From an uncultured Candidatus Saccharibacteria bacterium (GTDB lineage: Bacteria > Patescibacteriota > Minisyncoccia > Phycocordibacterales > WO2-35-19): a stretch of DNA of 64,000 nt. Each line of letters opens with the position of its first letter. Positions within the stretch are counted from its first letter, which is position 1. Positions 9,536 through 52,926 of this stretch are shown here, in pieces. The translations under genes were made by a program, and so were the position numbers. Location of the stretch: contig CAYTTP010000001.1 in assembly GCA_964440955.1 (NCBI GenBank), positions 14,388 to 78,387 of the forward strand, in the 5' to 3' direction. The notes beneath the pieces were generated by a model. The model was not told the DNA's origin. It ran no database searches and saw only the letters and a program-made list of their open reading frames with translations.

Positions 9536-10075
9536 TTATTTTTTGAATGGAAAATCTAGAGCTTTGAAAAATTCTAATGCCTTTTTAGGATCTTTGATAT
9601 TGGTGACAATAGTTGCGGCAAAACCAAAGACGTCTTTCAAATCTTCGTCAGCTGTTTCGGGAAATACTGTATGTTCTTTTATTGATAGAGTGTAGTTGCC
9701 CATTTCATCGACGGCAGTAGCAGAAATACCACGAAAATCTTTGGTTCGAGGCAAAGCAACATTGAAAAGCCTGTCTAGGAAGCTCCACATCTTTTCGCCA
9801 CGCAAAGAAACTTGGACACCAACAATGTCGCCAATCCGTGACTTGAAAGTAGCAATCGCCTTTTTGGCGCCTCGCCTGATTGGTTTTTGACCTGTTATTT
9901 TAGCCAACCTATCTTCGACTATTTCTATTTTCTTTTTATCGCTAAAGGAACCAACACCAGAATTTACCACCACCTTTACTATTTTTGGCGCCTGCATGAC
10001 GTTTTTTAGACCCAATTTATCCTTGAGTTCTTTGTATGCTTCCTTTGTTTTTTCTTTCATCAATTTTGTTTTCAT
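9536..10075 (-). CDS. rplE: 50S ribosomal protein L5
   Basis: 179 aa with L5 family motifs (…VSLRGEKMWSFLDRL…). Confidence 0.9.
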   Translation of the reverse strand: MKTKLMKEKTKEAYKELKDKLGLKNVMQAPKIVKVVVNSGVGSFSDKKKIEIVEDRLAKITGQKPIRRGAKKAIATFKSRIGDIVGVQVSLRGEKMWSFLDRLFNVALPRTKDFRGISATAVDEMGNYTLSIKEHTVFPETADEDLKDVFGFAATIVTNIKDPKKALEFFKALDFPFKK

Positions 10076-10095
10076 GTTTTTGTTCTTGTCTGGTT

Positions 10096-10134
10096 CCCCC
10101 TCTCTTGTTGTGAGAGAGGGGGTTAGGGGGTGAG
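10096..10134. repeat. GC-rich palindromic repeat (family copy): ccccctctct…agagaggggg…gggggtgag
   Basis: A hairpin-forming GC-rich island in AT-rich intergenic DNA between rplX and rplE. It ends with the family tail GGGGTGAG. Confidence 0.6.
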
Positions 10135-10350
10135 TTATTGTTTCTTAACGTTCGATACGTGTATTGGTGTTGCTTGTTCAACGATCTTTCCTTTCTCACC
10201 CTGCTTTCGCGCTCTGCGGTGCAATTTTTTAATGTTTACACCATCAATCAAGACAAGAGAAAGTTTTGGAAATGCTTTCACTACTGGACCGGACTTGCCC
10301 TTGTCTTTGCCGGTTATCACTATTACTTTGTCTCCTTTTTTGATTTTCAT
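10135..10350 (-). CDS. rplX: 50S ribosomal protein L24
   Basis: 71 aa with a KOW motif (MKIKKGDKVIVITGKDKGK). Confidence 0.9.
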   Translation of the reverse strand: MKIKKGDKVIVITGKDKGKSGPVVKAFPKLSLVLIDGVNIKKLHRRARKQGEKGKIVEQATPIHVSNVKKQ

Positions 10351-10395
10351 GTTTTTATTCGTGTCATTCGCGCAAATCCGTGGATTGGTGTCGGG

Positions 10396-10773
10396 TTAAA
10401 TAATTTCCGGCGCCAAAGTAACGATCGCCTGGTGTCCAGCTTCTGCTATTTCCCTTGGGATCGGACCAAAAACACGACCAGCCTTTGGCAAGATTTCACC
10501 TTTCTTTTGTTCAACTACAATCACCGCATTTTCATCGAAACGAATGTACGACCCATCCTTACGGCGAAGTGGAGACTTTTGTCTCACCACCATCCCAAGC
10601 AAGACCGCCTTCTTCTTGACCTCTTTTCGGGGCTCAGCCTTTTGAACCGAAAATATTACCAACTCACCTATTTTGGCATATCTTTTTTTTGAGCTACCGA
10701 GTATTTTGAAAATGCGCCCGATTTTCGCTCCGGAATTATCTACCACTTTGACGATTGATCGAGGCTGAATCAT
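10396..10773 (-). CDS. rplN: 50S ribosomal protein L14
   Basis: MIQPRSIVKVVDNSGAK… is the classic L14 N-terminus. Confidence 0.9.
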   Translation of the reverse strand: MIQPRSIVKVVDNSGAKIGRIFKILGSSKKRYAKIGELVIFSVQKAEPRKEVKKKAVLLGMVVRQKSPLRRKDGSYIRFDENAVIVVEQKKGEILPKAGRVFGPIPREIAEAGHQAIVTLAPEII

Positions 10774-10788
10774 TTTAGTAAATTTAAA

Positions 10789-11049
10789 TTAAATGACGAT
10801 GAAGTGCTTGGTCTTTGAAATCGGCCTTGTTTCTCGTATTTCGACCTTGTCGCCCATTTGCTTCACATTGCCAACATCGTGGGCTTTGTATTTTTTGTTC
10901 ACTTTGTAGTACTTCTTGTACTTTGGGTGTTTAACAAAACGCACCACATCAACAACTACCGTGTCTTTCATCTTGTTCGACACGACTACCCCTCGGAGTA
11001 CTTTGCCTCCGACTTTGGTATTTTGCGTTTTTTGAGCCGTTTTTTTCAT
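10789..11049 (-). CDS. rpsQ: 30S ribosomal protein S17
   Basis: 86 aa, …[16 protein letters not shown]…. Confidence 0.85.
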
Positions 11050-11090
11050 TGTTTACAAGTTCTATAAATCTACACAAATTTTCAAAATTA

Positions 11091-11510
11091 TCAAGCGCGC
11101 GCGACCCCCTTTGCTTTTACCGGCAATTTGGTGCCACCTTTGCGAAGAGCTTCAAGACCAACTGCCGCAGTAACACCGTCAACCTCAAACATGATCTGTC
11201 CTGGCAAAACCCTAGCGCAATACCCTTCGATATCACCCTTACCTTTACCCATTTTTACTTCCGCTGGCTTTTTGGTGAAAGGCATGTCTGGGAAAATACG
11301 AATCCAAACGCGACCGGTTTTGCCGACCGCACGACTGATAGCCTTTCTGGCTGATTCGATTTGGTTTGAAGTTATCCTAGCTGCGGTGAGCGCTTTGAGC
11401 CCGTATGAACCAAAAGCTACGGTGATACCGCGAGTTGCTGGAGAAACACGAGCCGGATTGCGTCGCAAGGTCTGCCACTTTCGATATTTTACTTTTTTAG
11501 GAAACAGCAT
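11091..11510 (-). CDS. rplP: 50S ribosomal protein L16
   Basis: MLFPKKVKYRKWQTLRR… There is only a 42 bp gap to rpsQ and no L29 gene between them. Confidence 0.9.
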   Translation of the reverse strand: MLFPKKVKYRKWQTLRRNPARVSPATRGITVAFGSYGLKALTAARITSNQIESARKAISRAVGKTGRVWIRIFPDMPFTKKPAEVKMGKGKGDIEGYCARVLPGQIMFEVDGVTAAVGLEALRKGGTKLPVKAKGVARA

Positions 11511-11546
11511 GTTGGTAAATTAAAATTGAAGATTAAATATTGAAAA

Positions 11547-12206
11547 TTATTTTTTGGCAAAGATTTCACCTTTATATATCCAAACCTTAATACCAATTTT
11601 TCCAAGTGGCAAAAGCGCTTCATAAAAAGCATAGTCGATATCTGCGCGCAAAGTCTGGAGCGGGATACGGCCAACCTTTTTTGATTCAACTCTGGCCATA
11701 TTGGAGCCACCCATAATACCGGAGAGAGTTATCTTCACTCCCTTAACATCACGATTAGCAAACGCCTTTTCAATCATTTGCTTGACCACTCTCCTGAAAG
11801 GCAACCTCTTTTCAAGTCCTTCAGCTACCATTTGAGCCACAATCATTGAGCTCGACTCGGGCGACTTAACCTCTTTCACATCAATCTTAACCTCCTCTTT
11901 CACATTAAGCTTTGCTTTGCGAATAAAGCTCAAAACATCATCACGGAGCTTTGTCATACCCTCGCCACTTCGGCCAATGATAAGTCCTGGGCGTGAAGTC
12001 TCAATGATCACTCTAAAAGTTTTCATGTTGCGCTCGATCTCGATTGAGTTTACATACATACCCTTCAAGCGTTTGGTCAAATATTCGTATATCAAAACGT
12101 CGCCTTTCAAGTTTTCCTTGTATTTTGTTCTTACACCAAACCAACGAGATTTCCAGTCCCTGATTATGCCGAGTCGGTGTGCGTATGGATGTACTTTATG
12201 GCTCAT
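11547..12206 (-). CDS. rpsC: 30S ribosomal protein S3
   Basis: 219 aa with a KH domain (GLIIGRSGEGM). Confidence 0.9.
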   Translation of the reverse strand: MSHKVHPYAHRLGIIRDWKSRWFGVRTKYKENLKGDVLIYEYLTKRLKGMYVNSIEIERNMKTFRVIIETSRPGLIIGRSGEGMTKLRDDVLSFIRKAKLNVKEEVKIDVKEVKSPESSSMIVAQMVAEGLEKRLPFRRVVKQMIEKAFANRDVKGVKITLSGIMGGSNMARVESKKVGRIPLQTLRADIDYAFYEALLPLGKIGIKVWIYKGEIFAKK

Positions 12207-12229
12207 AATAAGTTTATTAAAATTGAAGA

Positions 12230-12577
12230 TTATTTTTTGACTGATATTTTTTCACCCAAAACTATTTTGACTTTGCTGGTTCGCTTTTTGATCGGATGAG
12301 CCGAACCTCGGGATACTGGCCTACGACGATGCAAGACCTGGCCCCCATTCACTTCGATCGATTTTACATACAAATCATTTATATCCAAACCGACATTTTT
12401 GGCATTTGCAACAGCTGACTGCAAAAGTTTATTGAGTGGAGTGCTTGCTCTCTTCACGATCACTTGCAACCTTGCTTCAGCTTCCGATATTTTTTTACCT
12501 CGAAGCGCATCAGCAACAACCCTCACCTTACGAGGTGATTGTCGGTAGTCGTTGAGTTGTGCTGTTACTTCTTTCAT
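12230..12577 (-). CDS. rplV: 50S ribosomal protein L22
   Basis: 115 aa, …SPRKVRVVADALRGK…. Confidence 0.85.
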   Translation of the reverse strand: MKEVTAQLNDYRQSPRKVRVVADALRGKKISEAEARLQVIVKRASTPLNKLLQSAVANAKNVGLDINDLYVKSIEVNGGQVLHRRRPVSRGSAHPIKKRTSKVKIVLGEKISVKK

Positions 12578-12631
12578 TTTCTTGTATTTATATTTGGGCC
12601 ATTCGTGTCAATTTGTGTATTAGGGTCAAAT

Positions 12632-12976
12632 CTATTTCTTCGCTCCTTCTGAGGCAGTCTTGGCTGCCTTCGCTGCGTTAAGCTCTGCCTCCTTCTTCTT
12701 CGCTTCCAATTCCTTTTGCATCTTACCTCCGTGTTTGTTGAACTTACGAGTCAGAGAAAATTCACCCAAGCGGTGGCCAACCATATCTTCAGAAACAAGT
12801 ACTTCAATATGTTCACGGCCATTGTGAACACCAAAAATAAAGCCAACCATTTCAGGCGCGATGACGCAGGCTCTCGACCAAGTTTTTATAACCCCAGTTT
12901 CCTGTGGCTTCTTACCTTCTATCTTTTTCAAGACTCGAGGGTCTACGTATGGTCCTTTTTTGAGTGATCTTGACAT
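12632..12976 (-). CDS. rpsS: 30S ribosomal protein S19
   Basis: [12 protein letters not shown]…HNGREH… with a Lys/Ala-rich C-terminal tail. Confidence 0.9.
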
Positions 12977-13045
12977 AATAAAAGCTCACACGAGCTTGGG
13001 CTCCATACTATACAAATATGAATCTGTTGTCAATCTAAAGGAAAA

Positions 13046-13084
13046 CCTCACCCCAGCCCTCCCCCAGATGCAGGAGAGGGAGCC
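13046..13084. repeat. GC-rich palindromic repeat (family copy, opposite orientation): cctcacccc…ccctcccccagatgcaggagaggg agcc
   Basis: Same family as the 10096 copy. It lies upstream of rpsS and marks the break between the L2 and S19 blocks. Confidence 0.55.
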
Positions 13085-13123
13085 AAAAAAAGCACAAAAC
13101 CCGCAGGCTTTGTGAGCTGCGGG

Positions 13124-13234
13124 TTAATGAGTTACCAAGTTTAGAGCATTTTGTAGCCCTGGAATGACGCACTGGAGAAGGTACCCAAGCACCAACACCA
13201 CTGCGCCCCAAAACACAATCTGGCCTTTTTTCAT
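13124..13234 (-). CDS. 36-aa hydrophobic peptide (MKKGQIVFWGAVVLVLGYLLQCVIPGLQNALNLVTH) with a strong SD
   Basis: A GGAGGAAAAGGCT-ATG Shine-Dalgarno site, unusually strong for this genome. It is flanked by hairpin terminators on both sides. Confidence 0.4.
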   Translation of the reverse strand: MKKGQIVFWGAVVLVLGYLLQCVIPGLQNALNLVTH

Positions 13235-13300
13235 AGCCTTTTCCTCCACTATCAATAGTATAACATTGTTTTACATAAATGTCCAGTGCTTGAAGCCCTA

Positions 13301-13327
13301 AACGCGGTGGGATAGCCCCACCGCGTT
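13301..13327 (-). terminator. hairpin terminator (aacgcggtggg-atagc-cccaccgcgtt)
   Basis: An 11-bp perfect stem followed by a T run, downstream of the 122-aa gene. Confidence 0.5.
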
Positions 13328-13345
13328 TTCAAACTCCATAGCGCC

Positions 13346-13714
13346 CTACTCCTTCTTTTTTCTTTCAAAAAGCAACCGAACAACCGGTGGCAATCTATCT
13401 ATCACCGTCTTGATCTTCTCGTCAGTAGGAGGATTACTCATACCTGCGCCTGACGGAGGATGGATATAGGTGCCATCTGAAAGCCGATAGACACAAACGC
13501 TTCTCGGCTCATAATTCTTTCCATCAATTGCACTTGCGATAGCTGCATCTTCTTTACGAAGATAGATCGCATCGTGAACGGAATCCCCCCCACGACCTTC
13601 AATCTCGACCGTCCATGCTTGAACTTCTGCCGTGATGGTACGACCAAGAGGCCATCGTTGATTATGGGGCTCATTGCTCGAAATTCTACCCCAAGAATCT
13701 TCATCATGACCCAT
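13346..13714 (-). CDS. hypothetical protein (GC-rich)
   Basis: 122 aa ORF with no recognisable motifs. Confidence 0.35.
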   Translation of the reverse strand: MGHDEDSWGRISSNEPHNQRWPLGRTITAEVQAWTVEIEGRGGDSVHDAIYLRKEDAAIASAIDGKNYEPRSVCVYRLSDGTYIHPPSGAGMSNPPTDEKIKTVIDRLPPVVRLLFERKKKE

Positions 13715-13776
13715 AGAATTCAGAATCTCCTTTCTGCTCCAGAGAATACGCTCAAAATTTTAAAAATCAAGCAACA

Positions 13777-15543
13777 TTACATTTTTTTCGGAACCTTTAT
13801 ACCCAAAAGTTTCAGACCTGATTCGAGTACCGTAGCAGTAGCATGAGTAAGAGCGATTTTGTATGGAGAAGTAGGATCACCCTCATCGATTATCTTCCCT
13901 TGCGCATAAAAAGCGTTGAAAGTGGAGGCGAGCTCGGTAAGGTAAGTCACCAGATAATGAGGTTCATATTCGTCGGCACATCTCTCCACTACTTCTGGAA
14001 AACGGTACAAATATCTTTCGAGGTTTGTGATTTCCATTTCATCTGGCCTTCGTGCATTGAAACGATTCAAAAAACTCTTTGAGAAAAATGTCTGGCCGAG
14101 CAAAGCAATGAGACCCGAGGACTTTTTTGAAAAGACGTTTTTTGAATCGTTTTTTTCAGCCTTTTCTAAAACACTCTTCGCCCTCACACAAGTGTATTGG
14201 AGATATGGTCCCGAATCGCCCTCAAACGACAGTGAACTATCAAAATCAAAGACAATGTCGCCACCTGTCGACTGCCGAAGTATCGAATACTTGATCGCCC
14301 CAATCGCTACAATATCTGATATTTCGTCTGCCTCCTTTTCATCAAAACCACGATCCTTTATCTTTTCTTTTATGAGTAATTTTAGATGTTCCAAAAGTGC
14401 TCCAAACGTTATCACTTCACCGGTTCGGGACGACATCTTGCCGGTGGGTAATCGGAGCATTCCATGAGAAATATGTTCGGTCTTTGTCGAAAGCTCCGGA
14501 AAGACTTCTCTCATTGCAGCTAACAATACTTTGAAATATTCGTTAATTTCATTGCCGGTAATAATAATTGATCTGTCATACGCATATTTGTCGTATTTTA
14601 TTTTTGATAGCCCAAGTTCTTTTGCTTCATACACAGGCAATCCTTGAGAATTAACGAAAACGCGAGTATGGAGCCTTGGATCATATTTTTCACCCCTAAA
14701 AATGATAGCTCCTTCACTTTCTTCAAACACTCCCTTCTTCAAAAATTCTAATACCACCTCCTTGGCATAATCAGACACTTCGCTTTCGAAAAAATAGAAA
14801 TCAAATTTTGTACCAAGTTTTTCATACCATATTTCAAAATATTCGAGGCTTACCTTCCTTCCCCACTCATAAAGCTTATTGATTTCCGGATCAGATTTGT
14901 CAAAAATCTTTTTATTTATCTCCTGCATTTCAGACCTAAAATATTCGTGCTCTTTTAGAGAAGTGGCGCCATGAGCATAACATTCACCCAAATACTTTGC
15001 CTTTTCAAATATGGAGCCGTTCACTGTTCCGCCCTTCCTTACCATACTCCAAACAGCATAAGCAACATGCATACCAACATCGCCTTGATAGTTGGCCCGC
15101 TTCACTTTTGCATTGGAAGCCTCAAATAGTCGAGCAACAGACTCACCGATAATATTGGGCATCAAGTGGCCAATATGAAATTCTTTGAACGGATTTGGGT
15201 CGGTATACTCGATAATAACTTTTTGATTTAGAAAATTATTATTTTCGCCATATTTTTCTTTCTTCTCCAAAATATCATCTACACTTTCTTCAAAAAACTT
15301 TTTGGAGAGATAGATATTTATAAAACGTGGAGCGACAAATTGGAGCTTCTCGATTTCTGCGATCTGATTTTCCTCCAACTTTTTAAATATTCCTTCCGCG
15401 TTATCACTGTTTACGATCAAAGTGTAGTCGCCGTTTTGCATTTCCTTTGGATGCACCAAAGTAGGCTCCGAAATATCGGCAACTTCCTTCACCCACCCTT
15501 CAATTTTTTGCTTTATTTGCATACATATATTTATACCACGCAA
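13777..15543 (-). CDS. argS: arginine--tRNA ligase
   Basis: 588 aa with a HIGH-type motif (FHIGHLMPNIIG) and a C-terminal anticodon-binding DALR domain. Confidence 0.9.
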   Translation of the reverse strand: MRGINICMQIKQKIEGWVKEVADISEPTLVHPKEMQNGDYTLIVNSDNAEGIFKKLEENQIAEIEKLQFVAPRFINIYLSKKFFEESVDDILEKKEKYGENNNFLNQKVIIEYTDPNPFKEFHIGHLMPNIIGESVARLFEASNAKVKRANYQGDVGMHVAYAVWSMVRKGGTVNGSIFEKAKYLGECYAHGATSLKEHEYFRSEMQEINKKIFDKSDPEINKLYEWGRKVSLEYFEIWYEKLGTKFDFYFFESEVSDYAKEVVLEFLKKGVFEESEGAIIFRGEKYDPRLHTRVFVNSQGLPVYEAKELGLSKIKYDKYAYDRSIIITGNEINEYFKVLLAAMREVFPELSTKTEHISHGMLRLPTGKMSSRTGEVITFGALLEHLKLLIKEKIKDRGFDEKEADEISDIVAIGAIKYSILRQSTGGDIVFDFDSSLSFEGDSGPYLQYTCVRAKSVLEKAEKNDSKNVFSKKSSGLIALLGQTFFSKSFLNRFNARRPDEMEITNLERYLYRFPEVVERCADEYEPHYLVTYLTELASTFNAFYAQGKIIDEGDPTSPYKIALTHATATVLESGLKLLGIKVPKKM

Positions 15544-15576
15544 AAAGGCAAAAGTAATTTCGTGTGCATTCGCGGA

Positions 15577-16812
15577 TTAGCGTCGCACTCGTAACACCTT
15601 ATCAATCTTCCTAGCAATCTGCATAAAGTCTTTTTCCTTCTTACCACGAGTAGTTTCGGCTGGAGTACCAAGCCTGATACCAGAAGGGTCAAAAGGGCTA
15701 CGCTCATCAAAAGGTACGGTGTTTTTGTTTACGATTATTCCCGCTTTTTCCAATCGCTCTTCCGCTTCTTTGCCCGGCACCCCCTTCCCACCCATCCATG
15801 TATCAACCAAGACAAGGTGTGAGTCAGTACCGCCCGAAACCACTCGCCAGTTTAGATTTTGTAATTCAAGAGCTAAAGCTTTCGCGTTTTTGACTACTTG
15901 CTTTGCATAAGCTTTAAATTTTGAACTATTTGCTTCCGCCAAAGCTACAGCGATCGAGGCTATCTGCCCCATGTGAGGCCCACCTTGCAACCCTGGGAAA
16001 ACTGCTTTATCTATTTTTTTGCCCAATTCGCGATTATCGATTTTTGAAAAAATCATTGCCCCTCTCGGACCGCGCAATGTTTTGTGAGTCGTCGTCGTCA
16101 CTACGTCAGCGTATAAAAACGGTGATGGGTAAACCCCGCCCGCGACAAGTCCAGCAAAATGCGACATATCAACCACCAGATATGTCTGTCGATCATCACC
16201 TTTGGTTCTTTTTTTATTTACCTCATCAACTATTTCTCTGCACTTTTTAAAATCGACAATGCGCGGATAAGCGGTAAAGCCAACAACAACAATGTCGGGC
16301 TTTTCTCTGAGTGCCTCCTCCCGCATTTTTTTGTAATCAACCAATTCGGTTTTTGGGTCAAGCGCTATCGGCACTTGTTGCCAAAACTTGCCAGTAGCCG
16401 AAACTTTGTGCCCGTGAGTAAGGTGGCCACCCGAGGAGAGAGGTAAACCCATGATCACAGGGCGAGTCATGAATTTTGAGTCATGAATTAAGGGAGGACA
16501 CAGAGCCATATACACAGCCAAGTTTGCTGGAGAGCCAGAGAGTGGTTGGACATTGACCTGCCAATCTTTTTCTTTCAATCCAAAAAGTTTGAGTGCTCGT
16601 TTTTGGCAAAGCTCTTCAACCTTGTCAGTGTTTTCCTGCCCGCCATAATACCGTGCCCTTGGATACCCTTCGGCATATTTGTTGTCAAAAATAGAACCAA
16701 GAGCCTCAAGCACATCATTCGAGACATAGTTTTCGGAAGCGATAAGATTGATCACCCTTTTTTGCCTCCCCTTCTCCGCTTCAATAAGTTTTTTTATTTG
16801 AGGGTCTTTCAT
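15577..16812 (-). CDS. glyA: serine hydroxymethyltransferase
   Basis: 411 aa, …LIASENYVS… with a PLP-lysine region (TTTHKTLRGPRG). Confidence 0.9.
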   Translation of the reverse strand: MKDPQIKKLIEAEKGRQKRVINLIASENYVSNDVLEALGSIFDNKYAEGYPRARYYGGQENTDKVEELCQKRALKLFGLKEKDWQVNVQPLSGSPANLAVYMALCPPLIHDSKFMTRPVIMGLPLSSGGHLTHGHKVSATGKFWQQVPIALDPKTELVDYKKMREEALREKPDIVVVGFTAYPRIVDFKKCREIVDEVNKKRTKGDDRQTYLVVDMSHFAGLVAGGVYPSPFLYADVVTTTTHKTLRGPRGAMIFSKIDNRELGKKIDKAVFPGLQGGPHMGQIASIAVALAEANSSKFKAYAKQVVKNAKALALELQNLNWRVVSGGTDSHLVLVDTWMGGKGVPGKEAEERLEKAGIIVNKNTVPFDERSPFDPSGIRLGTPAETTRGKKEKDFMQIARKIDKVLRVRR

Positions 16813-17775: not shown

Positions 17776-17779
17776 GGTA

Positions 17780-18346: not shown

Positions 18347-18347
18347 T

Positions 18348-19016: not shown

Positions 19017-19062
19017 TCGTAGGTGATTAAATTATTGTGTAAGTATATCAACGTAAGTATGT

Positions 19063-28525: not shown

Positions 28526-28527
28526 GT

Positions 28528-44741: not shown

Positions 44742-46137
44742 GCTGATATTTTTTCCCCTCCTCTGGAAATATAGCTTCCACACCCACATAGTCTCGGATA
44801 CGCTGACATAGAAAAAGTGAAGATTTTGGTTCGCCCATAATAACAAAAACTTTTTTGAGTCCTGTCTGACTCCCCTCTCCTGCGTCTAGGAAAGGGGTCG
44901 GGGGTGAGGTCTTCACACTCTCGACAAACTCCACCAAGTGCTCAGAGTCCATGTGCGAAGAATACCCGTCCACTTTGGCGACCGTCGCCTCAACCTTTAT
45001 CTTTTCTCCGTCTATTTTTACCTCCTTCGCCCCATCTTCGAGCCTACGCCCCAGAGTACCAACCGATTGATAACCCACCATGATCAGGGTATTTTTTGCA
45101 TCTCCCAAAATACGTTCCTCGTGACTCCTTATCCTCCCACCTTCCGACATACCCGAACCGGCGAGGATGATTTTTGGATCTGGAGTATTTTCGATAAGCG
45201 CCGACTCTCTCGCTCCATGAGTCATTATAAGTTTTGGAAATTTAAAAATATCATCACCCGACTCGATTTCGTCCCTCACTTCTTTTTTGAAATCATGTGC
45301 ATATTTTTTATAAATACCGGTCACCCGAAGTGCAAGCGGTGAATCCAAAAAAACCGGCACCTCTGGTAGTTCCCCTGACTCGATCATTTTGTTAAGTTCG
45401 TACAAAATGACTTGCGTCCGCTCAATCGAAAAAGCGGGAATCACAATCGTCCCCTGTTTCTTGATGCCAGCCAAAATCAAATCTCTCAGTCTTTCCTTTC
45501 TTTGGTCTCGATTTTCGTGGTTTCGATCACCATAGACGCTCTCCATTACCATATAATGAGCCCCTTTGGGTATTTCTACATCCGGCAAAAGAGGCGATGG
45601 CGAGTTACCCAAATCACCAGTAAAGGCAATCGTCCTTGCCTCTTTGCCGCTATCGCAAGTAACAAGGCAGATAGCCGAACCAAGCACATGACCGGCATTT
45701 ATGCATTTTAGTTTACAATTTTTAAAAAGCTCTTTTTCCTCATCATAACCAACCCCCTCCCACAACGAAAAAGCTTGAGCAATATCAGACTTTTCATATA
45801 ACGAACCACCCCGCACAAGCATCACCTTATAAGCATCTTCAAGCATGGGTAAAGAGAGCTCTTTGGTTTCTATTGTCGAAATTATTTTGCCCCTAAAACC
45901 ATCGCTCACCAATTTTGGCACTCGCCCAATATGATCCATATGAGCATGAGTAATGATTAAAAAATCAATGGTGGTAGGATCATAAGCAAAGTCGCTTTCG
46001 TTCAATTGGTTTGCCTCCAAGTCGCCCTGGATCAAACCACAATCAACCAAAATCCTTTTATTATCCCATTCCAATAAAATATTGGCCCCAGTCGCTCGGC
46101 CAACTCCTCCAAAAAAAGTCAAAAATTTTTCGCTCAT
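44734..46137 (-). CDS. metallo-beta-lactamase fold / beta-CASP ribonuclease (RNase J-like), with an in-frame GC-rich repeat insertion near the C-terminus
   Basis: HAHMDH motif plus beta-CASP region. The repeat 44872-44909 is translated as TSPPTPFLDAGEGS. Confidence 0.7.
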   Translation of the reverse strand: MSEKFLTFFGGVGRATGANILLEWDNKRILVDCGLIQGDLEANQLNESDFAYDPTTIDFLIITHAHMDHIGRVPKLVSDGFRGKIISTIETKELSLPMLEDAYKVMLVRGGSLYEKSDIAQAFSLWEGVGYDEEKELFKNCKLKCINAGHVLGSAICLVTCDSGKEARTIAFTGDLGNSPSPLLPDVEIPKGAHYMVMESVYGDRNHENRDQRKERLRDLILAGIKKQGTIVIPAFSIERTQVILYELNKMIESGELPEVPVFLDSPLALRVTGIYKKYAHDFKKEVRDEIESGDDIFKFPKLIMTHGARESALIENTPDPKIILAGSGMSEGGRIRSHEERILGDAKNTLIMVGYQSVGTLGRRLEDGAKEVKIDGEKIKVEATVAKVDGYSSHMDSEHLVEFVESVKTSPPTPFLDAGEGSQTGLKKVFVIMGEPKSSLFLCQRIRDYVGVEAIFPEEGKKYQLT

Positions 46138-46559
46138 ATCGAAAGCTGTTTATTCCTATCTTGGTCAAGCTCTTTCATGTAGGCATACATACAGGCCACC
46201 AAGGCTCCTAAGGTATCCATGATAAGGTCGAGGACCGTATCGGGAATATATTCGCGAGTCGCGGTTGAGGTAATACCAAAAAATAATTCAAAAGCCTCCC
46301 AAAATACTCCGATTATGATAAGTGACAAAAGTGAGACTAGCAAAAAATTTAGGCCACGACGCGACGTAGGCTCAAAAATCCCCGAAAAAAAGTAAAGCCA
46401 GAGAGTGAAAAGTGCAATCCACGCACCGCCCAAAAAGTGCATGAACGAGTCAAATTCGTGGATCGTCCAATAAAAGTATAAAGTGGTAGCTAACTGATGT
46501 AGAGCTCCAATCACTATCAAAAGGCCAAACATTTCCTTAAACAGGGGTTTTTTGAACAT
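46134..46559 (-). CDS. hypothetical 4-TM membrane protein
   Basis: 141 aa hydrophobic ORF. Confidence 0.45.
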   Translation of the reverse strand: MFKKPLFKEMFGLLIVIGALHQLATTLYFYWTIHEFDSFMHFLGGAWIALFTLWLYFFSGIFEPTSRRGLNFLLVSLLSLIIIGVFWEAFELFFGITSTATREYIPDTVLDLIMDTLGALVACMYAYMKELDQDRNKQLSI

Positions 46560-46594
46560 AATAAAATCTTATCATCCAAAACCTCGTTTGCCCA

Positions 46595-46639
46595 CCGACG
46601 AAAAATCCCAAAACGTATTGCTTTGGGATTTTTCGTCGG
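46595..46639 (-). terminator. terminator at the end of the S14…ndk operon
   Basis: ccgacgaaaaatccc-N15-gggatttttcgtcgg (15-bp stem). A second small hairpin follows it. Confidence 0.6.
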
Positions 46640-46771
46640 ACCGCCCGGAATATTCCCTATTTTTTAGAATAGGTGGGTGGCCTCGATTGGGACTTTACGT
46701 CACAAAAAGTTAGCCTCCCTGAATATAAATTAAGTAGAAAATACCGAACGGTCCTAGAGTCAATTATACTC

Positions 46772-47392
46772 CTACTCCAAGAGGCCATCCATATTTACAT
46801 CATACAAAATTTGTTCTTGGATAAGTTTGTAGTTTATAAGTTCATCGTCATTAAACCAATGCTTTATTTCCATCTCTGCCTCCTTCACCGAACCAGAACC
46901 ATGAACCAAGTTTCTAACCGAGCGACCATCTTGATCAGCTAGTTCATAAGAATCAAGAACAAAATCACCCCTTATTGAACCAACATCAGACGAACGAGGC
47001 TCGGTGCCTCCAGTTATTTTGCGAGCAAGCTCAACTGCATGCAAACCCTGCCAGACCATGAGGATAACTGGACCGCTTGTCATATATTTTTTTAGTTTCT
47101 CCAAGACGATTGCGGTTATCTCATACGGATCCTCTGAAGGCGGTTTATTACCACGTTCACGTGCCATTTTTATACGCTTTTCTCCGGTCACTCTCCGCCA
47201 TTCTGGGTCAAGAGTGTAAAATTGCTCGATTTGCTCTTCAGTTGGCAAAGCCATTTTAGTAGCAACGAGTTTTAAACCCCTTCTTTCAAAACGACCTATT
47301 ATCTCACCGATTAGTGATCGTTGAATACCGTCAGGTTTTATTATTATCAAAGTTCTCTCTGTTTTTGGATGCATAAAATTTTCAATCTTCAA
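46772..47392 (-). CDS. ndk: nucleoside diphosphate kinase (long 206-aa form with insertions)
   Basis: TLIIIKPDGIQR… and NLVHGSGSVKEAEMEIKHWF match Ndk. It is the last gene of the r-protein/secY/adk/map operon. Confidence 0.75.
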   Translation of the reverse strand: MKIENFMHPKTERTLIIIKPDGIQRSLIGEIIGRFERRGLKLVATKMALPTEEQIEQFYTLDPEWRRVTGEKRIKMARERGNKPPSEDPYEITAIVLEKLKKYMTSGPVILMVWQGLHAVELARKITGGTEPRSSDVGSIRGDFVLDSYELADQDGRSVRNLVHGSGSVKEAEMEIKHWFNDDELINYKLIQEQILYDVNMDGLLE

Positions 47393-47399
47393 TTTTTAA

Positions 47400-48164
47400 T
47401 TACTTTGTCAACACTTCTATTTTCCCATCATACCCTACTGCAACCGTGTGTTCAAAATGAGCCGAGAGCGATTTGTCACGAGTAATGTAGGTGTAGCCAT
47501 CAGAGAGCTTTTTGATATCACGACTACCTAGAGTAAGCATAGGTTCGATAGCAATCACGAGCCCCGGCGAGAGCTTTGGACCCTCCCCACGCTTGGCTTT
47601 GTTTGGTACAAAAGGCTCTTCATGAACATGATAACCCACCCCATGCCCCGAGAGGCCTTCCACTATACCAAGATCGTGTTTTATCGCTGTTTGCATAACC
47701 GCATCGCCTATATCACCTATATGACCATTTAGTCTCATTGCTTTAATACCACGATCAAGGGCTTCGCGAGTAGCTTGGATTAGGGTAGATGCTTCTTTGG
47801 AAATCGAACCGACTGCAACTGTGATCGCTGCATCTGTTATCAAACCTTCATAAACAAGCCCTAAATCAAGAGTGACCACATCACCCTCAAAGAGCATGCG
47901 CTCATCAGGTATACCATGCACTATTTCTTCATTTATCGAAACACACAGAGAGGCCGGGTATGGGTATTTGGCATCACGCGGCTGATAGCCTAAAAACGCA
48001 GCTGTGCAACCAGCCTCGTCGATCAACTGCTCAGCATAAGCATTCAAATCACTTGTCCTTACACCTGGCTTAACCCTCTTCGCCACCTCTCTCAAAATGC
48101 GGGCGTGGATCGCTCCACCCTTCTTCATGGTTTCTATTTCTTCTTTAGTTTTATATTTGATCAT
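47400..48164 (-). CDS. map: methionine aminopeptidase type I
   Basis: 254 aa with pita-bread fold metal ligands (…D…D…H…E…E pattern). Confidence 0.85.
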   Translation of the reverse strand: MIKYKTKEEIETMKKGGAIHARILREVAKRVKPGVRTSDLNAYAEQLIDEAGCTAAFLGYQPRDAKYPYPASLCVSINEEIVHGIPDERMLFEGDVVTLDLGLVYEGLITDAAITVAVGSISKEASTLIQATREALDRGIKAMRLNGHIGDIGDAVMQTAIKHDLGIVEGLSGHGVGYHVHEEPFVPNKAKRGEGPKLSPGLVIAIEPMLTLGSRDIKKLSDGYTYITRDKSLSAHFEHTVAVGYDGKIEVLTK

Positions 48165-48762
48165 TTTTATCGAGTGTCATCTTCAAAATATCTTGGTGAA
48201 CTTCTTCAATTGGACGGTTGCCATCTATACTTATAAACTGATAGCGCGAATTATTTTTGAAATACTCCAGAGCCTGGACCGCATTTTCATCGTACCAATC
48301 AAGACGTCTTTCGACATCTTCTTTGGTATCATCAGCGCGCTTTCGATTTAAAAGCCTTTCGGCAGCTACTTCCCGAGGAATATCGATCAATATGACATAA
48401 GGGTTTTCCCTTCCAAAAAACTTCATAGCCGAATCAAGGATTGGTGCTTCGTGCGACCGACGAGAGAGACCATCGAGCACCATATGTTCCTCTCCCGAAA
48501 CATGCTTCACCAAATATTCTGTCCAAACCCAAATCGGCAAAAACTCAGGCAAAAGACCTCCCTCCGCCATTATTTCCCTTGTTTTTTTAGCGGTAAGTGA
48601 AGCTTCTTTGGCAAATTCACGAAACTTCTGCCCCGTCTCCAAATACAAAACATCACGCTTAGGGTCACGCTCTTTTAGCTTCTCGATGAGCATTTTGGCC
48701 TGGGTACCCTTACCACAACCCGATCGCCCAAAAAATATAAATGTTTGAAGATTTAGAGACAT
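48151..48762 (-). CDS. adk: adenylate kinase
   Basis: 203 aa with a P-loop GRSGCGKGTQ. Confidence 0.85.
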   Translation of the reverse strand: MSLNLQTFIFFGRSGCGKGTQAKMLIEKLKERDPKRDVLYLETGQKFREFAKEASLTAKKTREIMAEGGLLPEFLPIWVWTEYLVKHVSGEEHMVLDGLSRRSHEAPILDSAMKFFGRENPYVILIDIPREVAAERLLNRKRADDTKEDVERRLDWYDENAVQALEYFKNNSRYQFISIDGNRPIEEVHQDILKMTLDKNDQI

Positions 48763-48865
48763 TGAATTATGAAGTAAGGATTATAAGTTAAGCATAATAA
48801 TGAAAATGATTATGCACAAGCCCTTGCTTTTTGCATAATTCATTATTCATTATTGCTAATTCAAT

Positions 48866-50137
48866 CTAGTACTCCCTCGCTGAAATTTGAGCGTCAATTT
48901 TCTTTACAAGATCAATAACCACAGATACAACAATGAGCAAACTTGTACCACCGATAGCGACTGCGCTTATACCGGTCACCGCCTGCATCACAAGAGGCAA
49001 AACTGCGATCACTGCCAAAAAGAGGGCGCCAACCAAGGTCAAACGAAGCAAAATGTTGGAGATATGGGAAGAAGTCGGAAGTCCAGGCCTTATACCTGGT
49101 ATGAATGCTCCACTCCTTTGTAGGTTTTTTGATATAGAGTCAGGGTCAAAAGTGACCGCAGTGTAGAAATAAGTGAAAATAAAAACAAGTGCAAAATAAG
49201 CAATTGCATAAAATGTCTGGTTGGTCATAAATGAAAGCACTGCCGCCGATGCACTTTGAACAAAACTATTTTGTACGTTTGCCAAAAACTGAACCAACAT
49301 TTGAGGCAACATCAAGATAGCAAGAGCAAAAATTATTGGTATTACTCCAGCCTGGTTAACCCTAAGTGGGATATAGGTCGAAGCGCCACCATACATTTTG
49401 TTGCCCCTCACCTGCTTTGCATAAGTGACTGGTATTGGACGCTCTGCTTCAGTCACGACGACTACCCCCCATATAACAAGCGCTGCGGCAGCAATGAAGC
49501 CGAGGTAGGAAGGTAGCTGGGAAGCATCGAAAGAGAAGAAGAGTTTCCCTATCTCGTTTGGCAAAACCGAAACAATACCAGCAAAAATAATGAGCGACAC
49601 ACCATTACCTATACCAAACTCAGTGATAAGTTCTCCAAGCCACATAAGTAGGAGCGAGCCAGCCGTAATGACAAGCAAATTGGTCGCTAGGTCAAAATAA
49701 CCAAGTCTTGCCAAAATACCCTGATTTTGAAGCAACGAAATGAAAGCAAAACCCTGCATGACTCCAAGCGGGATAGTGAGCAGTCGCGAATATTGTGAAA
49801 ATTTCCTTCGGCCCGCCTCACCTTCCTCTTGATACATTTCCTTCATCTTTGGAAAGATGATGGTGAAAAGTTGCATGATAATGGAAGCAGTGATGTAAGG
49901 CGAAACACCAAGCATGATGATCGAAAGCTTAGCTAAACCACCACCCGAAAAAAGGTTCAACAAATTGAAAAAATCGTTGTTGGAAAGAAACTGCTCGAGA
50001 CGCAAAGTATCAATCCCTGGGATTGGGATCACCGCCAAGAGCCTAAAAGCAACAAGGATGAAAAGAGTGAAAAAAATCCTCTTTCGGAGCACCCTGTCGC
50101 CGAAGACCAAATTTAGTTTATGAGCGAAGGTATTCAT
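48866..50137 (-). CDS. secY: preprotein translocase subunit SecY
   Basis: 423 aa with 10 TM helices and the usual SecY conserved blocks. Confidence 0.9.
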   Translation of the reverse strand: MNTFAHKLNLVFGDRVLRKRIFFTLFILVAFRLLAVIPIPGIDTLRLEQFLSNNDFFNLLNLFSGGGLAKLSIIMLGVSPYITASIIMQLFTIIFPKMKEMYQEEGEAGRRKFSQYSRLLTIPLGVMQGFAFISLLQNQGILARLGYFDLATNLLVITAGSLLLMWLGELITEFGIGNGVSLIIFAGIVSVLPNEIGKLFFSFDASQLPSYLGFIAAAALVIWGVVVVTEAERPIPVTYAKQVRGNKMYGGASTYIPLRVNQAGVIPIIFALAILMLPQMLVQFLANVQNSFVQSASAAVLSFMTNQTFYAIAYFALVFIFTYFYTAVTFDPDSISKNLQRSGAFIPGIRPGLPTSSHISNILLRLTLVGALFLAVIAVLPLVMQAVTGISAVAIGGTSLLIVVSVVIDLVKKIDAQISAREY

Positions 50138-50148
50138 TTATGCTTATT

Positions 50149-50598
50149 TTATTCTTCTTTTGAAACTTTACCACCTAAGGATTCGATCGCTGTGCGAGCC
50201 CCGGCCGAAACTTCTACGCCGATAAAATTGAAATTTTTAGTAAGTTCACCACCAACCAATATCTTGATACGAGGAGTGACTCCGCTTTTAATAGAAACGA
50301 GCTCCTTAGCAACAAGTGTCGCTGGGCTTATAGTTGCACCCTTTTCAAAAACTTTTTCGATGTCACCAAGTTTTATAGCTTTCGCTTCATCCAAGCGAGT
50401 TTTCAAAGAGTTTTTGCCACGACCACGAAGTTTTGGTAGTCGTTTTATAATATCGCGCCATTCAGGTCGCTTTTTTCTACCTGATCGAGCATTTTGACCC
50501 TTGGTACCACGTCCCGAAGTCTTACCTCGAGAACCGCCACGACCAACCTGCTTCGCCTTTCGATTGGAACTATTCTTTTTTAGGTTATGGAATTGCAT
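50149..50598 (-). CDS. rplO: 50S ribosomal protein L15
   Basis: 149 aa with a Gly/Arg-rich N-terminus. There is no L30 gene between it and rpsE. Confidence 0.85.
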   Translation of the reverse strand: MQFHNLKKNSSNRKAKQVGRGGSRGKTSGRGTKGQNARSGRKKRPEWRDIIKRLPKLRGRGKNSLKTRLDEAKAIKLGDIEKVFEKGATISPATLVAKELVSIKSGVTPRIKILVGGELTKNFNFIGVEVSAGARTAIESLGGKVSKEE

Positions 50599-50635
50599 AT
50601 TTCTGATTGAAGATTAAAAATTGAAAATTTGGAGT

Positions 50636-51250
50636 TTAACTTTTAACTTTCAACTGTTGCAATGCTTTAATGGTAGCGCGAGCAATGTTGAGTTTATTTT
50701 TTGATCGAGAGAGTATCTTCGAAGATACTTGGCTTACTCCAGCAAGCTCAAGGACAGTACGTACGGCGCTTCCGGCAATCACTCCCTTACCTGGAGCTGG
50801 CATAATGCTAACTTGTGCACTTGAATATTTAGCAAAAACCGGATGATTGATAGACTTTTTGTCGTTGAGTGCAACCTTGACCATCTCTTTTTTAGCAGCT
50901 CGCATCGCTTTGTCGACTGCGATCGGAGTGTCAGACGACTTACCAACACCAACACCTACCCGACCCTTTCGGTCGCCAATTGCAATCGCGATCGAAAAAC
51001 TAAAACGACGACCACCGGAAGTCACACGAGTAACCCGCCTAACATTCAAGATTTTGTTATCAAATTCTTGCTTAACTCGCTCCACCCGACGTGAAGGTCG
51101 GCGCTCGTTTTTGCGACGATCGCCTCGTGGACCAAAGTCCTTTTTGCCCTCCGGTGCCAAAGCGCCACTATCGGTCGCGACTGCGTTAAGAGTCGCTTCT
51201 TCAACCACCTCCTCTGTACCTTCTATTATTTTTTCCTCTTGATTGTCCAT
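50636..51250 (-). CDS. rpsE: 30S ribosomal protein S5
   Basis: 204 aa. The core …VTRVTSGGRRFSFSIAIAIGDRKGRVGVGVGKS… follows an acidic and basic N-terminal extension. Confidence 0.85.
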   Translation of the reverse strand: MDNQEEKIIEGTEEVVEEATLNAVATDSGALAPEGKKDFGPRGDRRKNERRPSRRVERVKQEFDNKILNVRRVTRVTSGGRRFSFSIAIAIGDRKGRVGVGVGKSSDTPIAVDKAMRAAKKEMVKVALNDKKSINHPVFAKYSSAQVSIMPAPGKGVIAGSAVRTVLELAGVSQVSSKILSRSKNKLNIARATIKALQQLKVKS

Positions 51251-51257
51251 TGTTTAA

Positions 51258-51608
51258 TTAAAATTTAAGTCCACCTTCACGGGCGCCGAGAGCAAGAGCT
51301 GCGACAACACCAGTGTATTCAAAACCTCCTCGATCGAAAACCACCTTTATAACACCCTCTTTGAGAGCTGCCCCCGCCAAAGTTTGTCCAACCTTAAGAG
51401 CTTTTTCCAACAAAGTACCTTTGCCTTTCATCTTTTCACTTGTAGCCATAACCAAAGTCATGCCTTTGGTATCATCAATGATTTGAGCAGAAATATGTTT
51501 GTTTGAACGAAAGACCGAAAGTCGAGGCTTTTCTGATGTGCCAAAAATCTTGGCTCGTACTCGCTTCCTACGTCTATCCCTTTGCTGTTGTTTTGTTTTA
51601 GTATCCAT
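51258..51608 (-). CDS. rplR: 50S ribosomal protein L18
   Basis: 116 aa, …[17 protein letters not shown]…. Confidence 0.85.
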
Positions 51609-51645
51609 CGAGATTGATTGAAAATTGAAGATTCAAAATTAAAAA

Positions 51646-52179
51646 TTAGACAGACTTTTTTCCTTGCTTTCGGCGGATCACTTCGCCCTCGTACCTAAAG
51701 CCCTTGCCTTTGTAAGGTTCAGGCTTCTTCAAAGAACGAACCTTGGCTGCGAAGCTTCCCACCAATTCCTTGTCTATACCAGAAACCGTGATAAGGTTCT
51801 TTTCCGCCTTTACGGTAAGACCTTGAGGTATTTCAACATTGACTGGGTGGGAAAATCCGAGCGCCAAGACCAAAGTATTGCCATTCACTTGAGACTTATA
51901 GCCGACACCCTCGAGAATGAGCTTCTTTTCAAAACCCTCATTCACGCCCTTGATCATATTCTTTATATGAGAGCCATAAGTCCCCCAAAGAGCGCGGGTT
52001 TCCTTAGTGTCCTTAACTAAAGCAAGGCGAATATCGTTTCCTTCAATCATGATAGCAATATCTGGACGAAACATCCGGTCAAGCGACCCTTTAGGTCCTT
52101 TGACAGACAAAAGACCATTGTCGAATTTTACTTCGGTCTTCTCTCCAATCATTATTCCTTTTTTGCCTATTCTACTCAT
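51646..52179 (-). CDS. rplF: 50S ribosomal protein L6
   Basis: 177 aa with two L6 repeats. Confidence 0.85.
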   Translation of the reverse strand: MSRIGKKGIMIGEKTEVKFDNGLLSVKGPKGSLDRMFRPDIAIMIEGNDIRLALVKDTKETRALWGTYGSHIKNMIKGVNEGFEKKLILEGVGYKSQVNGNTLVLALGFSHPVNVEIPQGLTVKAEKNLITVSGIDKELVGSFAAKVRSLKKPEPYKGKGFRYEGEVIRRKQGKKSV

Positions 52180-52230
52180 TGTTTTTATATTTGTATCATT
52201 CGTGTGAATTCGTGAATCTAGTGTTGCACT

Positions 52231-52626
52231 TTACCAGATATTAAACAAAAATTCGCCACCAAGGTTTGCTTTCTTAGCATCCATATCAGCCATAATACCT
52301 TTTGGAGTTGAGAAAACCGACATTCCAAAACCTCGACGAAAACGCTTTATTTCCTTCGCTTTAGCGTACAATCGGCGCGATGGCTTTGAAATACGGTCTA
52401 CATCTTGGACTTTTGGTTTACCATCTTCACCGTATAAAAGAGCGACGTTCAAGACAAAGTGGTTGCCTTTGGTTGTTTTTGAAACTTCGCCCACAAAGCC
52501 CTTCTCGGAGAGCAAAGTAGCGATTGCAAACTTCATTTTTGAAAAAGGTAGGGAAATATTCGCCTTGCCGACACGGCCCGCGTTTTTGATTCGTATTATA
52601 AAATCTCCGATTGTGTCTGTAGTCAT
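52231..52626 (-). CDS. rpsH: 30S ribosomal protein S8
   Basis: MTTDTIGDFIIRIKNAG…. Confidence 0.9.
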   Translation of the reverse strand: MTTDTIGDFIIRIKNAGRVGKANISLPFSKMKFAIATLLSEKGFVGEVSKTTKGNHFVLNVALLYGEDGKPKVQDVDRISKPSRRLYAKAKEIKRFRRGFGMSVFSTPKGIMADMDAKKANLGGEFLFNIW

Positions 52627-52704
52627 TGTTTTTCGAGGCGATTTTTCCCTTCGACAGGCTCAGGGTAAAGAGCCTAAAAAGAAGTGAAATCTACCAAGAT
52701 ATTG

Positions 52705-52926
52705 TTACCAAGATGATTTCTTAACTCCCGGTATTCTACCGGTATTTGCAAGCTCCCTGAAGCATATACGACAGAGACCAAAGTCACCCATATATGCTCT
52801 CGATCGGCCACATTTGAAACAGCGTCGAACGATCCGAGTGCTGAATTTCGGCTTCTTTTGTGATCTTGCGATTACTGAAGTTTTTGCCATTTCTATTAAA
52901 TAACCCCGTATAAAAGGGGCTTCCAT
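52705..52926 (-). CDS. rpsZ: 30S ribosomal protein S14 type Z (zinc-binding)
   Basis: 73 aa with CFKCGRS…CRIC, a CxxC…CxxC arrangement. Confidence 0.8.

Follow-up and report, generated by a model that had tools for sequence, protein, structure and literature searches.

Dispersal of probably separately promoted modules of the S10-spc ribosomal-protein supercluster in a clade of Parcubacteria

The arrangement of the S10-spc ribosomal-protein (r-protein) supercluster was analysed in a 64,000-nt stretch of contig CAYTTP010000001.1 (hereafter the window, meaning this whole stretch). The data showed that the supercluster genes lie in three separate blocks, named here A, B and C, which are all on the minus strand and follow each other along that strand in the order C, A, B. 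It is very probable that this gene order is real, inherited and common to a clade of Zambryskibacteria-like Parcubacteria, and that it reflects the dispersal of separately promoted modules, which is the best explanation overall. The evidence for this consists of the gene identities, the conserved synteny, the independent assemblies, and the enrichment of promoters and leaders together with the covariation of the leader. The window is best seen as an extreme case of a modularisation of the r-protein supercluster that runs through the whole group. The S10-spc array is among the most conserved gene orders in prokaryotes, and a lineage in which it is broken within the classical S10 and spc operons, at recurrent borders that appear to have their own promoter and leader, provides a natural experiment on what keeps the cluster together.

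Gene order of the three blocks

Genes were called by Pfam scans of about 80 open reading frames (ORFs) of the window. A preliminary description, made from the sequence by reading, had proposed three minus-strand blocks permuted to C-A-B, and Pfam identified every gene which it had named in them. The blocks, and the genes and units at their borders, are listed below; unless stated otherwise, they were assigned by Pfam.

46772-52890, minus strand: block C, with S14, S8, L6, L18, S5, L15, secY, adk, map and a nucleoside-diphosphate-kinase (NDK)-like gene
52705-52890, minus strand: S14; the long ORF reaches 52926
46772-47392, minus strand: NDK-like gene with an insertion, at the end of block C
28560-33837, minus strand: block A, tuf-S10-X133-L3-L4-L23-L2-L19
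32209-33934, minus strand: tuf-rpsJ unit including a promoter-like site (Pfam and promoter scan)
32635-33837, minus strand: tuf
32209-32577, minus strand: S10
31614-32070, minus strand: X133 (ORF 31669-32070, no Pfam match) with a terminator-like hairpin (31642-31614)
28560-31508, minus strand: L3-L4-L23-L2-L19 unit
28988-29836, minus strand: L2
28560-28988, minus strand: L19
9536-12976, minus strand: block B, with S19, L22, S3, L16, S17, L14, L24 and L5
12632-12976, minus strand: S19
9536-10075, minus strand: L5

The 12.9 kb from block C to block A contain a DUF2238 gene, rnj, rny, clpP, rsmE, tig, ppa, nusA, the gene of an 880-aa protein and a DUF5663 gene, while the 15.2 kb from block A to block B contain tRNA-His, tRNA-Leu, an ABC transporter, folD, a SIMPL-family gene, secE-nusG-rplK, a thymidylate/folate set and argS. 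The GC content is even across the block junctions. The cumulative GC skew falls steadily along the window, so all three blocks probably sit on the leading strand.

Inside the blocks, the order is colinear with that of the canonical str-S10-spc-alpha supercluster (tuf-S10; L3-L4-L23-L2; S19-L22-S3-L16-(L29)-S17-L14-L24-L5; S14-S8-L6-L18-S5-(L30)-L15-secY-adk-map). The differences are that the genes are not contiguous and are ordered C-A-B, that fusA is detached, L19 is added and X133 is inserted, that L29 and L30 are absent, and that no alpha genes follow map. In E. coli the borders between the operons are at S17|L14 and L36|S13, whereas the window is broken inside the S10 operon (L2|S19) and inside the spc operon (L5|S14).

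The unusual joins inside block A were also found as described before. Pfam placed rplS directly behind rplB, with the stop codon of L2 and the start codon of L19 sharing one base (TAATG at 28988-28990), and the same join is common to five relatives (L001-L005). The L2 ORF encodes 282 aa, as compared to 267 aa in the public gene call, which uses a later start; an exact protein look-up with the 282-aa form gave no match, and the look-ups with S8, L16 and L19 did match. Between rpsJ and rplC there is a 133-aa ORF with two hydrophobic segments, X133, together with a terminator-like hairpin and a GC-rich palindrome. X133 is preceded by a strong Shine-Dalgarno sequence (GGAGGAGG), had no match in Pfam, retrieved only itself and no homologue among 1.84 billion representative proteins, and is missing between S10 and L3 in the clade relatives, where the gaps are 10, 239, 263 and 1740 bp long. 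X133 is an ORFan. One start codon has to be revised: S14, which had been given a start at 52926, most likely starts at 52890 (61 aa), and the 73-aa ORF from 52926 begins inside the leader described below, to which its 12 extra codons belong.

The arrangement in relatives and in independent assemblies

To place the window, its gene order was compared with that of fetched loci and contigs, which are labelled L001, L092, L161 and so on, and which come from metagenome-assembled genomes (MAGs), metagenome contigs and Logan contigs. The arrangement is conserved in MAGs and metagenome contigs of independent origin, with a nucleotide identity of about 65-74%. The five MAGs L001-L005, in which L2 is 78-83% identical, have nusA, the 880-aa protein gene, the DUF5663 gene and tuf to L2, followed by L19. 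One of them, L005, continues past L19 with folD-SIMPL-secE, and so links block A to secE. The C-to-A link is reproduced in L002 and on contig CAZFHL010000002.1, where block C (L164) and block A (L001) are present on one 47-kb contig; block C of L164 is flanked by recG upstream and by DUF2238-rnj-rny-clpP downstream. The link from secE to block B, as well as both flanks of block B, is reproduced in L092 (metagenome contig JACCDR010133967.1), which has secE-nusG-L11, dcd, glyA, argS, S19 to L5, a PRTase-like gene and pilM. In a neighbour-joining tree of the L3, L4 and L2 proteins from 93 loci and the window, the genomes with L19 after L2 form one clade, and their sister lineages have the canonical order of L2 and S19. 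Elsewhere on this tree, the adjacency of L2 and S19 has been lost at scattered positions, which indicates independent origins. S14 follows L2 in L038, DUF2238-rnj lies after L2, 3-7 kb on, in L069 and L074, and other genes follow L2 in L053, L037 and L059, with no S19 in the available 5.7-10 kb. In addition, L113 has S19 without L2 upstream and recG after L5.

The window is metagenome-derived, has GC-rich repeats and tRNAs near some of its block ends, and lies close to branch points of the assembly graph (contig L161 ends at 54377, and L162, from another run, diverges at 54388), all of which could suggest that the three-block order is an artefact of assembly or binning, namely a chimeric contig joined at repeats or tRNAs. 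The Logan assemblies of single runs showed otherwise. Identity was 100% over 42231-54377 in SRR13608701 (L161), over 6379-21510 in SRR13608704 (L165), over 10854-12970 in SRR13608702 and over 52111-53931 in SRR13608705, while contigs L167 and L168 have the same order by gene content, S10-X133-L3-L4-L23-L2-L19. Jointly, these contigs span the L2-L19 join, the X133 insert, the flanks on either side of blocks B and C, and the L16-S17 spacer of 41 bp, which is identical in the assemblies from two runs. Moreover, for every linking segment there is at least one independent relative that has it as well, and the branch point at 54.38 kb falls outside the r-protein blocks. Misassembly at the junctions, which the preliminary description had named as the finding that would overturn it, is excluded by the per-run assemblies and the independent relatives, and a chimeric origin of the whole order is extremely improbable.

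The region beyond the branch point differs between assemblies. Past 54388, L162 contains mur genes, where the window instead contains genes of a TdeIII-type restriction enzyme, a methylase, a LexA-like protein and an HNH protein, beyond tRNA-Ser(gct). A segment within 54169-58376 is bracketed by a 27-nt inverted repeat (54448-54474 and 58350-58376, 93% complementary) and has a low GC content of 0.32-0.35. This 54-58-kb segment is probably a strain-variable island.

Open junctions in the wider group

The borders at which the window is broken, which hold insertions of 0.1-9.7 kb in the wider group sampled, are also open in relatives that retain the canonical order. In such loci the L2-S19 gap ranges from 42 bp to 9.7 kb, and the L5-S14 and S10-L3 gaps reach 2.9 kb and 6.4 kb, respectively. 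S19 lies a median of 756 bp, and S14 a median of 682 bp, from the preceding hit, as compared to about 15-170 bp for genes within modules. In eight loci that are more distant, L2 and S19 are close together, with gaps of 14-114 bp. The gaps contain 302 ORFs, which form 218 clusters, 186 of them singletons; among the gap genes are rplJ-rplL (9 loci), opposite-strand histidine kinases, diacylglycerol kinase, MazF and HlyD/ABC exporters. The anomalies which had been listed for this genome are real, but several of them are common to the clade or to the candidate phyla radiation (CPR) and are not oddities of this genome: the open S10|L3, L2|S19 and L5|S14 borders, the absence of L30, of the alpha operon after map and, apparently, of L1, and the ndk gene after map.

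In one Parcubacteria lineage, rplJ-rplL (L10 and L7/L12) lie directly after L2, and between L2 and S19 where S19 is present (L015 12383-13338, L049 11480-12378, L071 11009-11494, and six further loci). Here, too, r-protein genes have been recruited to a junction that is open.

For CPR genomes, phylogenomics and curation often use 16 r-proteins which are assumed to be syntenic on one scaffold. As these genes are in three blocks in this clade, and are interrupted by kilobases of unrelated genes in the wider group, contigs will break at these points, and single-scaffold filters will lose or mis-score such genomes; hence, the practical effect is on CPR genome curation by single-scaffold r-proteins.

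The loosening of translation-gene arrays by multi-gene insertions at operon borders, with the inner order kept, is known (PMC6735719, PMC8046335). The present case is the same in that insertions entered at borders over evolutionary time and the order inside operons was kept, while it differs in the borders used (S10|L3, L2|S19 and L5|S14), in the promoter and leader that the pieces appear to have of their own, in the reordering of the pieces, and in the host, a CPR bacterium with a small genome. A literature search turned up no previous account of such a split in Parcubacteria, which is not proof that there is none. The kind of event is thus already known, and what is least expected is that breaks recur within the classical S10 and spc operons, and that S19 and S14 share a covarying leader.

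Predicted promoters, terminators and the S19/S14 leader

Sigma-70-like sites with at least 9 of 12 matches were sought within 150 nt upstream of each gene of the cluster, in all loci, and terminator-like hairpins were searched after the genes. The predicted signals of the window are the following.

12977-13114, minus strand: region upstream of block B, with the terminator of the upstream unit, a GC palindrome, a promoter and a leader hairpin
13114-13093, minus strand: predicted terminator of the unit upstream of block B
13033-13005, minus strand: predicted block B promoter, TTGACA-17-TAGTAT
12997-12982, minus strand: predicted block B leader hairpin, AAGCTC-GTGT-GAGCTT, with a U-rich tract
9488-9525, minus strand: immediately behind rplE, a predicted terminator-like hairpin whose stem has 17 bp
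33934-33907, minus strand: tuf promoter-like site, TTGACA-16-TACATT, TG-extended (promoter scan)
28529-28498, minus strand: predicted terminator-like hairpin after rplS
52891-52955, minus strand: putative block C promoter, TTGACT-17-TAATGT (-10 element at about 52927), with leader hairpin CCCC-N8-GGGG and a U-rich tract before S14, as read from the sequence

Each block of the window carries a predicted promoter and terminator of this kind. Across the group, a sigma-70-like site precedes S19 in 78% of 134 loci (37% when at least 10 of 12 matches are required), S14 in 37% and tuf in 36%, as compared to 8-32%, mostly about 10%, for genes within modules. Terminator-like hairpins follow S10 in 19%, L2 in 17%, L5 in 22% and secY in 21% of cases, and other genes in 0-12%, mostly below 7%. 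The promoter and leader architecture of block C recurs upstream of S14 in relatives. The leader and promoter upstream of S19, and often of S14, were noted among loci L006-L160, in many Parcubacteria.

The S19 leader has a recurrent design, in which TTGACw, a 16-17-nt spacer, TAnTAT and 7-14 nt are followed by hairpin AAGCTC-N4-GAGCTT, a U-rich tract and ATG; the consensus over 60 loci is AGCTC-N4-GAGCTT-nTTTnnTT. Such a layout, with a GC-containing stem and a U-rich tract between the predicted promoter and the start codon, fits that of an intrinsic terminator or attenuator, and the terminator scan itself lists 12997-12982 (AAGCTCGTGTGAGCTT then TTATTATG). Because RNAalifold predicted merely 3 pairs on a MAFFT alignment of the S19 leaders, its result was set aside, and the 6-bp helix was specified by hand, tested against shuffles and slid partners, and then realigned with a covariance model. 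The helix is paired in 80.7% of cells in the 60 sequences, compared to 20-51% with slid partners, and compensatory cells numbered 16, compared to 6.0 ± 2.1 in shuffles, with none of 500 shuffles reaching 16. After the alignment had been fitted to the model, which biases it toward the structure, 90.7% of the cells were paired. The covariance model, trained on S19 leaders alone, also matched untrained sites, which were 10 upstream of S14, 3 further ones upstream of S19, 2 upstream of fusA/tuf, and 1 directly after L2 in L069.

In Rfam 15, only tRNAs of the window pass the gathering threshold, and permissive Rfam scans of the S19 and S14 leaders gave matches at chance level (E values of at least 1.9) and no known r-protein leader family. 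In E. coli, the leader of the S10 operon is the site at which L4 causes NusA-dependent attenuation. The leader described here resembles it as a promoter-proximal hairpin with a U-rich tract that heads an r-protein operon, while it differs in lacking sequence or Rfam similarity to it, in having a much shorter hairpin, of 5-7 bp, and in its location before S19 and S14 and not before S10. The S19/S14 leader may act as an attenuator or, equally, as a stem-loop that stabilises the 5′ end, and it is a candidate new cis-regulatory element. Judged by these sequence features, the blocks are sub-operons with a promoter and leader of their own across the wider group, and not arbitrary fragments.

Probable dispersal of the modules

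These data suggest that the S10-spc supercluster in the sampled group would be a chain of separately promoted modules and not one tight operon array. The modules would be fusA-(DUF5663)-tuf-S10, L3 to L2, S19 to L5, and S14 to map(-ndk), with terminator-like hairpins at the S10|L3, L2|S19 and L5|S14 borders, and with a TTGACw-16/17-TAGTAT promoter, leader hairpin and U-rich tract before S19 and S14. As each module would be expressible alone, unrelated genes could accumulate at the borders many times. In the clade of the window, housekeeping genes amounting to 13-15 kb would then have come to separate the modules, which would also have taken on the order C-A-B, and rplS would have been recruited behind rplB with a coupled stop and start. 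The lineage of the window itself would in addition have undergone a precise deletion of rpmC and gained X133 at the S10|L3 border. We infer that the predicted promoters and terminators are in use, that modularity preceded and permitted dispersal, and that the process was largely neutral.

Alternatively, dispersal could have been selected, with new neighbours rewiring the regulation of each module (S19-L5 behind argS and the thymidylate/folate genes, L19 behind L2, and ndk behind map), and with the leader hairpin serving as a module-specific attenuator. This explanation agrees with the conservation of the promoter and covarying leader hairpin upstream of both S19 and S14, with the apparent translational coupling of L2 and L19, and with the recurrence of the adjacency of map and the NDK-like gene (L035, L089, L116, L144 and L164; in L043 the NDK-like gene is 2.9 kb after map). 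On the other hand, the contents of the junctions differ by lineage and are mostly singleton ORFs, which fits neutral accumulation better than a selected neighbourhood. Selected dispersal, which differs from neutral dispersal of modules in the driving force alone, is regarded as unlikely.

Several points weigh against the dispersal of separately promoted modules as described above. The promoters, terminators and leader are sequence predictions; the S14 promoter of the window was not listed by the generic consensus scan, and the window promoter before L3 is weak (its -10 element is TAGTCT, at about 31590). The order of events, with modularity before dispersal, was deduced from the distribution of arrangements on the neighbour-joining tree, which was built from three proteins and has no support values. 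The Logan runs belong to one accession series, probably that of the study which produced the source genome, and thus test the assembler and not the biology, so that the biological replication of the gene order rests on the relatives. Finally, the visible part of the genome is 64 kb, and a second copy of any gene could be located elsewhere.

A broader claim can be put forward only tentatively, as one that we consider possible but doubtful. In a large Parcubacteria (Paceibacteria-type) radiation, the S10-spc cluster might have been modularised under a new leader before S19 and S14, possibly an autoregulatory attenuator, which might have enabled its dispersal, and the ribosomes of the window lineage might lack L1, L29 and L30.

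Absent ribosomal-protein genes

The preliminary description had pointed to missing genes for L29, L30, L1 and the alpha operon, and in the window all of these were indeed absent from their usual positions, with different scope for each. The following features are concerned.

11050-11090, minus strand: L16-S17 spacer, 41 bp, from which rpmC appears cleanly deleted (L29 hidden Markov model and alignment)
21592-22846, minus strand: secE-nusG-rplK, with no rplA after rplK (Pfam)

A hidden Markov model (HMM) built from the L29 of 59 relatives had no match between rplP and rpsQ or anywhere else in the 64-kb window. The same HMM showed that L29 is kept between L16 and S17 in L092 and L081-L083, which indicates that its loss occurred within the clade, and the alignment showed that the spacer after L16 is retained in the window. 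Another 13 fetched loci have short L16-S17 gaps and no L29 in the fetched sequence. As judged from this alignment, rpmC is precisely deleted in the own lineage of the window, at the L16-S17 slot.

The S5-L15 spacer of the window is 37 bp long, and so does not contain L30; in relatives this spacer measures 8-134 bp. Behind rplK, the next gene is that of 5-FTHF cyclo-ligase, on the other strand, as identified by Pfam. There is no rplA after rplK in the window and apparently none in L092, which, for these two, is consistent with the OD1-L1 group. Pfam also showed that map is followed not by alpha genes but by the NDK-like gene, the DUF2238 gene and rnj. In no relative examined does infA follow map, and those with 0.6-1.2 kb of sequence beyond map have other ORFs there. 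Tblastn searches with E. coli infA, L36, S13, S11, S4, L17, L1, L30 and L9, which had no positive control, gave no credible match in the window and none in any locus, so reliance was placed on the Pfam scan of the window ORFs. The absence of L30 and of the alpha genes after map is a trait of the group and is not peculiar to this genome, and the same probably applies to L1.

L30 is reported to be absent in all CPR and L1 in the OD1-L1 group, and lineage-specific losses include sporadic ones of L28, L29, L32 and L33 (PMC5220378; bioRxiv 10.1101/2022.01.07.475337). The passages quoted from the CPR ribosome paper ascribe the loss of L29 to Peregrinibacteria. The window agrees with these losses in having no L30 between S5 and L15, no L1 after L11 and no L29 between L16 and S17, and it differs in that its L29 loss arose inside the clade. 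Hence, the clean, within-clade deletion of rpmC is a datable addition to the CPR r-protein losses.

GC-rich palindromic elements

The block ends had also been said to coincide with GC-rich repeats and tRNA loci. The repeat is a palindromic element of 35-50 nt, which is present in seven copies of two subtypes, ACCTCACCCC..CCCTCTCCTAGAnnnAGGAGAGGG and GCCCCTCCC.GACCCTCCCCAAAGGGGAGGG.

13051-13080, 28521-28559, 32159-32200, 38221-38243, 40380-40418, 41974-42030 and 44873-44902: the seven element copies
32097-32200, minus strand: immediately behind the stop codon of rpsJ, a GC palindrome (core 32164-32186) and a perfect hairpin (32097-32146) whose arms are 23 nt long
28498-28559, minus strand: GC palindrome and terminator-like hairpin after rplS
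27730-28093, minus strand: tRNA-His(gtg) and tRNA-Leu(gag), 3′ of block A (ARAGORN and Rfam)

Four intergenic copies lie beside terminators; one each follows S10, L19 and nusA, and the fourth precedes the S19 promoter. No copy was seen at either end of block C. The tRNAs are not at the block ends but near them, at a distance of 0.4 kb behind block A and of 1.2 kb in front of block C. Three other copies are read in frame, in rsmE, rnj and tig, and encode peptides such as TSPLATPDPLLDLGEGE. The copy in rnj makes an insertion of 11-14 residues relative to L164, L074 and L069, the one in tig makes insertions of 7 and 9 residues relative to L002, and the one in rsmE is an apparent insertion, for which there is no orthologue to compare.

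The copies after S10, after L19 and before the S19 promoter, together with tRNA-His and tRNA-Leu after block A and tRNA-Ser before block C, could indicate that this genome was rearranged recently, by recombination between the palindromes or at tRNA genes. However, the order is common to relatives at merely 65-74% nucleotide identity, which shows that the rearrangement is old. The element was not found in those flanks of clade relatives that were read (after L19 in L001, L002, L004 and L005, and before S19 in L092), and it is rare overall, with 8 strict matches in about 1.8 Mb of fetched loci when the Logan copies of the window genome are set aside. Further copies are located after nusA, in frame in tig and rnj and apparently in rsmE. 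A recent rearrangement is thus very unlikely, and the GC-rich repeats were rejected as the cause of the breaks, since they are not at the junctions read in relatives and are dispersed, including inside genes. As the element is rare and not present at the junctions read in relatives, it is a mark of operon ends in the window and not the cause of the old rearrangement, for which the dispersal of modules remains the preferred explanation.

Rickettsia palindromic elements are short palindromic repeats which occur both between genes and in frame inside conserved genes. The element of the window is similar in having intergenic and in-frame copies, the latter forming insertions of 7-16 residues relative to orthologues. 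It differs in its host lineage and in the location of its intergenic copies beside terminators, and the likeness is one of layout and not of compared sequence.

Other features of the window

Several genes in or beside the blocks have further particular features. L24 (10135-10350) is just 71 aa long, and consists of a KOW domain and about half of the C-terminal domain, which agrees with the shortened r-proteins reported for CPR. The 880-aa protein (34242-36884), which has no Pfam domain, occupies the position that fusA has in canonical relatives, upstream of DUF5663-tuf, and is conserved in L001, L002, L004 and L005. There are two nucleoside-diphosphate-kinase genes, a canonical one of 138 aa in the folate/thymidylate cluster (19621-20037) and one of about 200 aa after map (46772-47392), which yields two separate Pfam matches and thus suggests an internal insertion.

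Shine-Dalgarno sequences are nearly absent among the genes, the exceptions being X133 and L19. An AT-rich motif, AATCTTCAATTTT on the coding strand, recurs in r-protein spacers, 10-30 nt upstream of the starts of S10, L2, S3, L16, L18 and L15 (for example at 11517-11549, 32578-32615, 50598-50630 and 51616-51648), and it may be a lineage-specific signal for translation initiation or processing. Finally, the tRNA at 63088-63161 has the anticodon TAT and was assigned to tRNA-Ile by ARAGORN. Such a tRNA is uncommon in bacteria, in which AUA is usually decoded by a lysidine-modified CAT anticodon.

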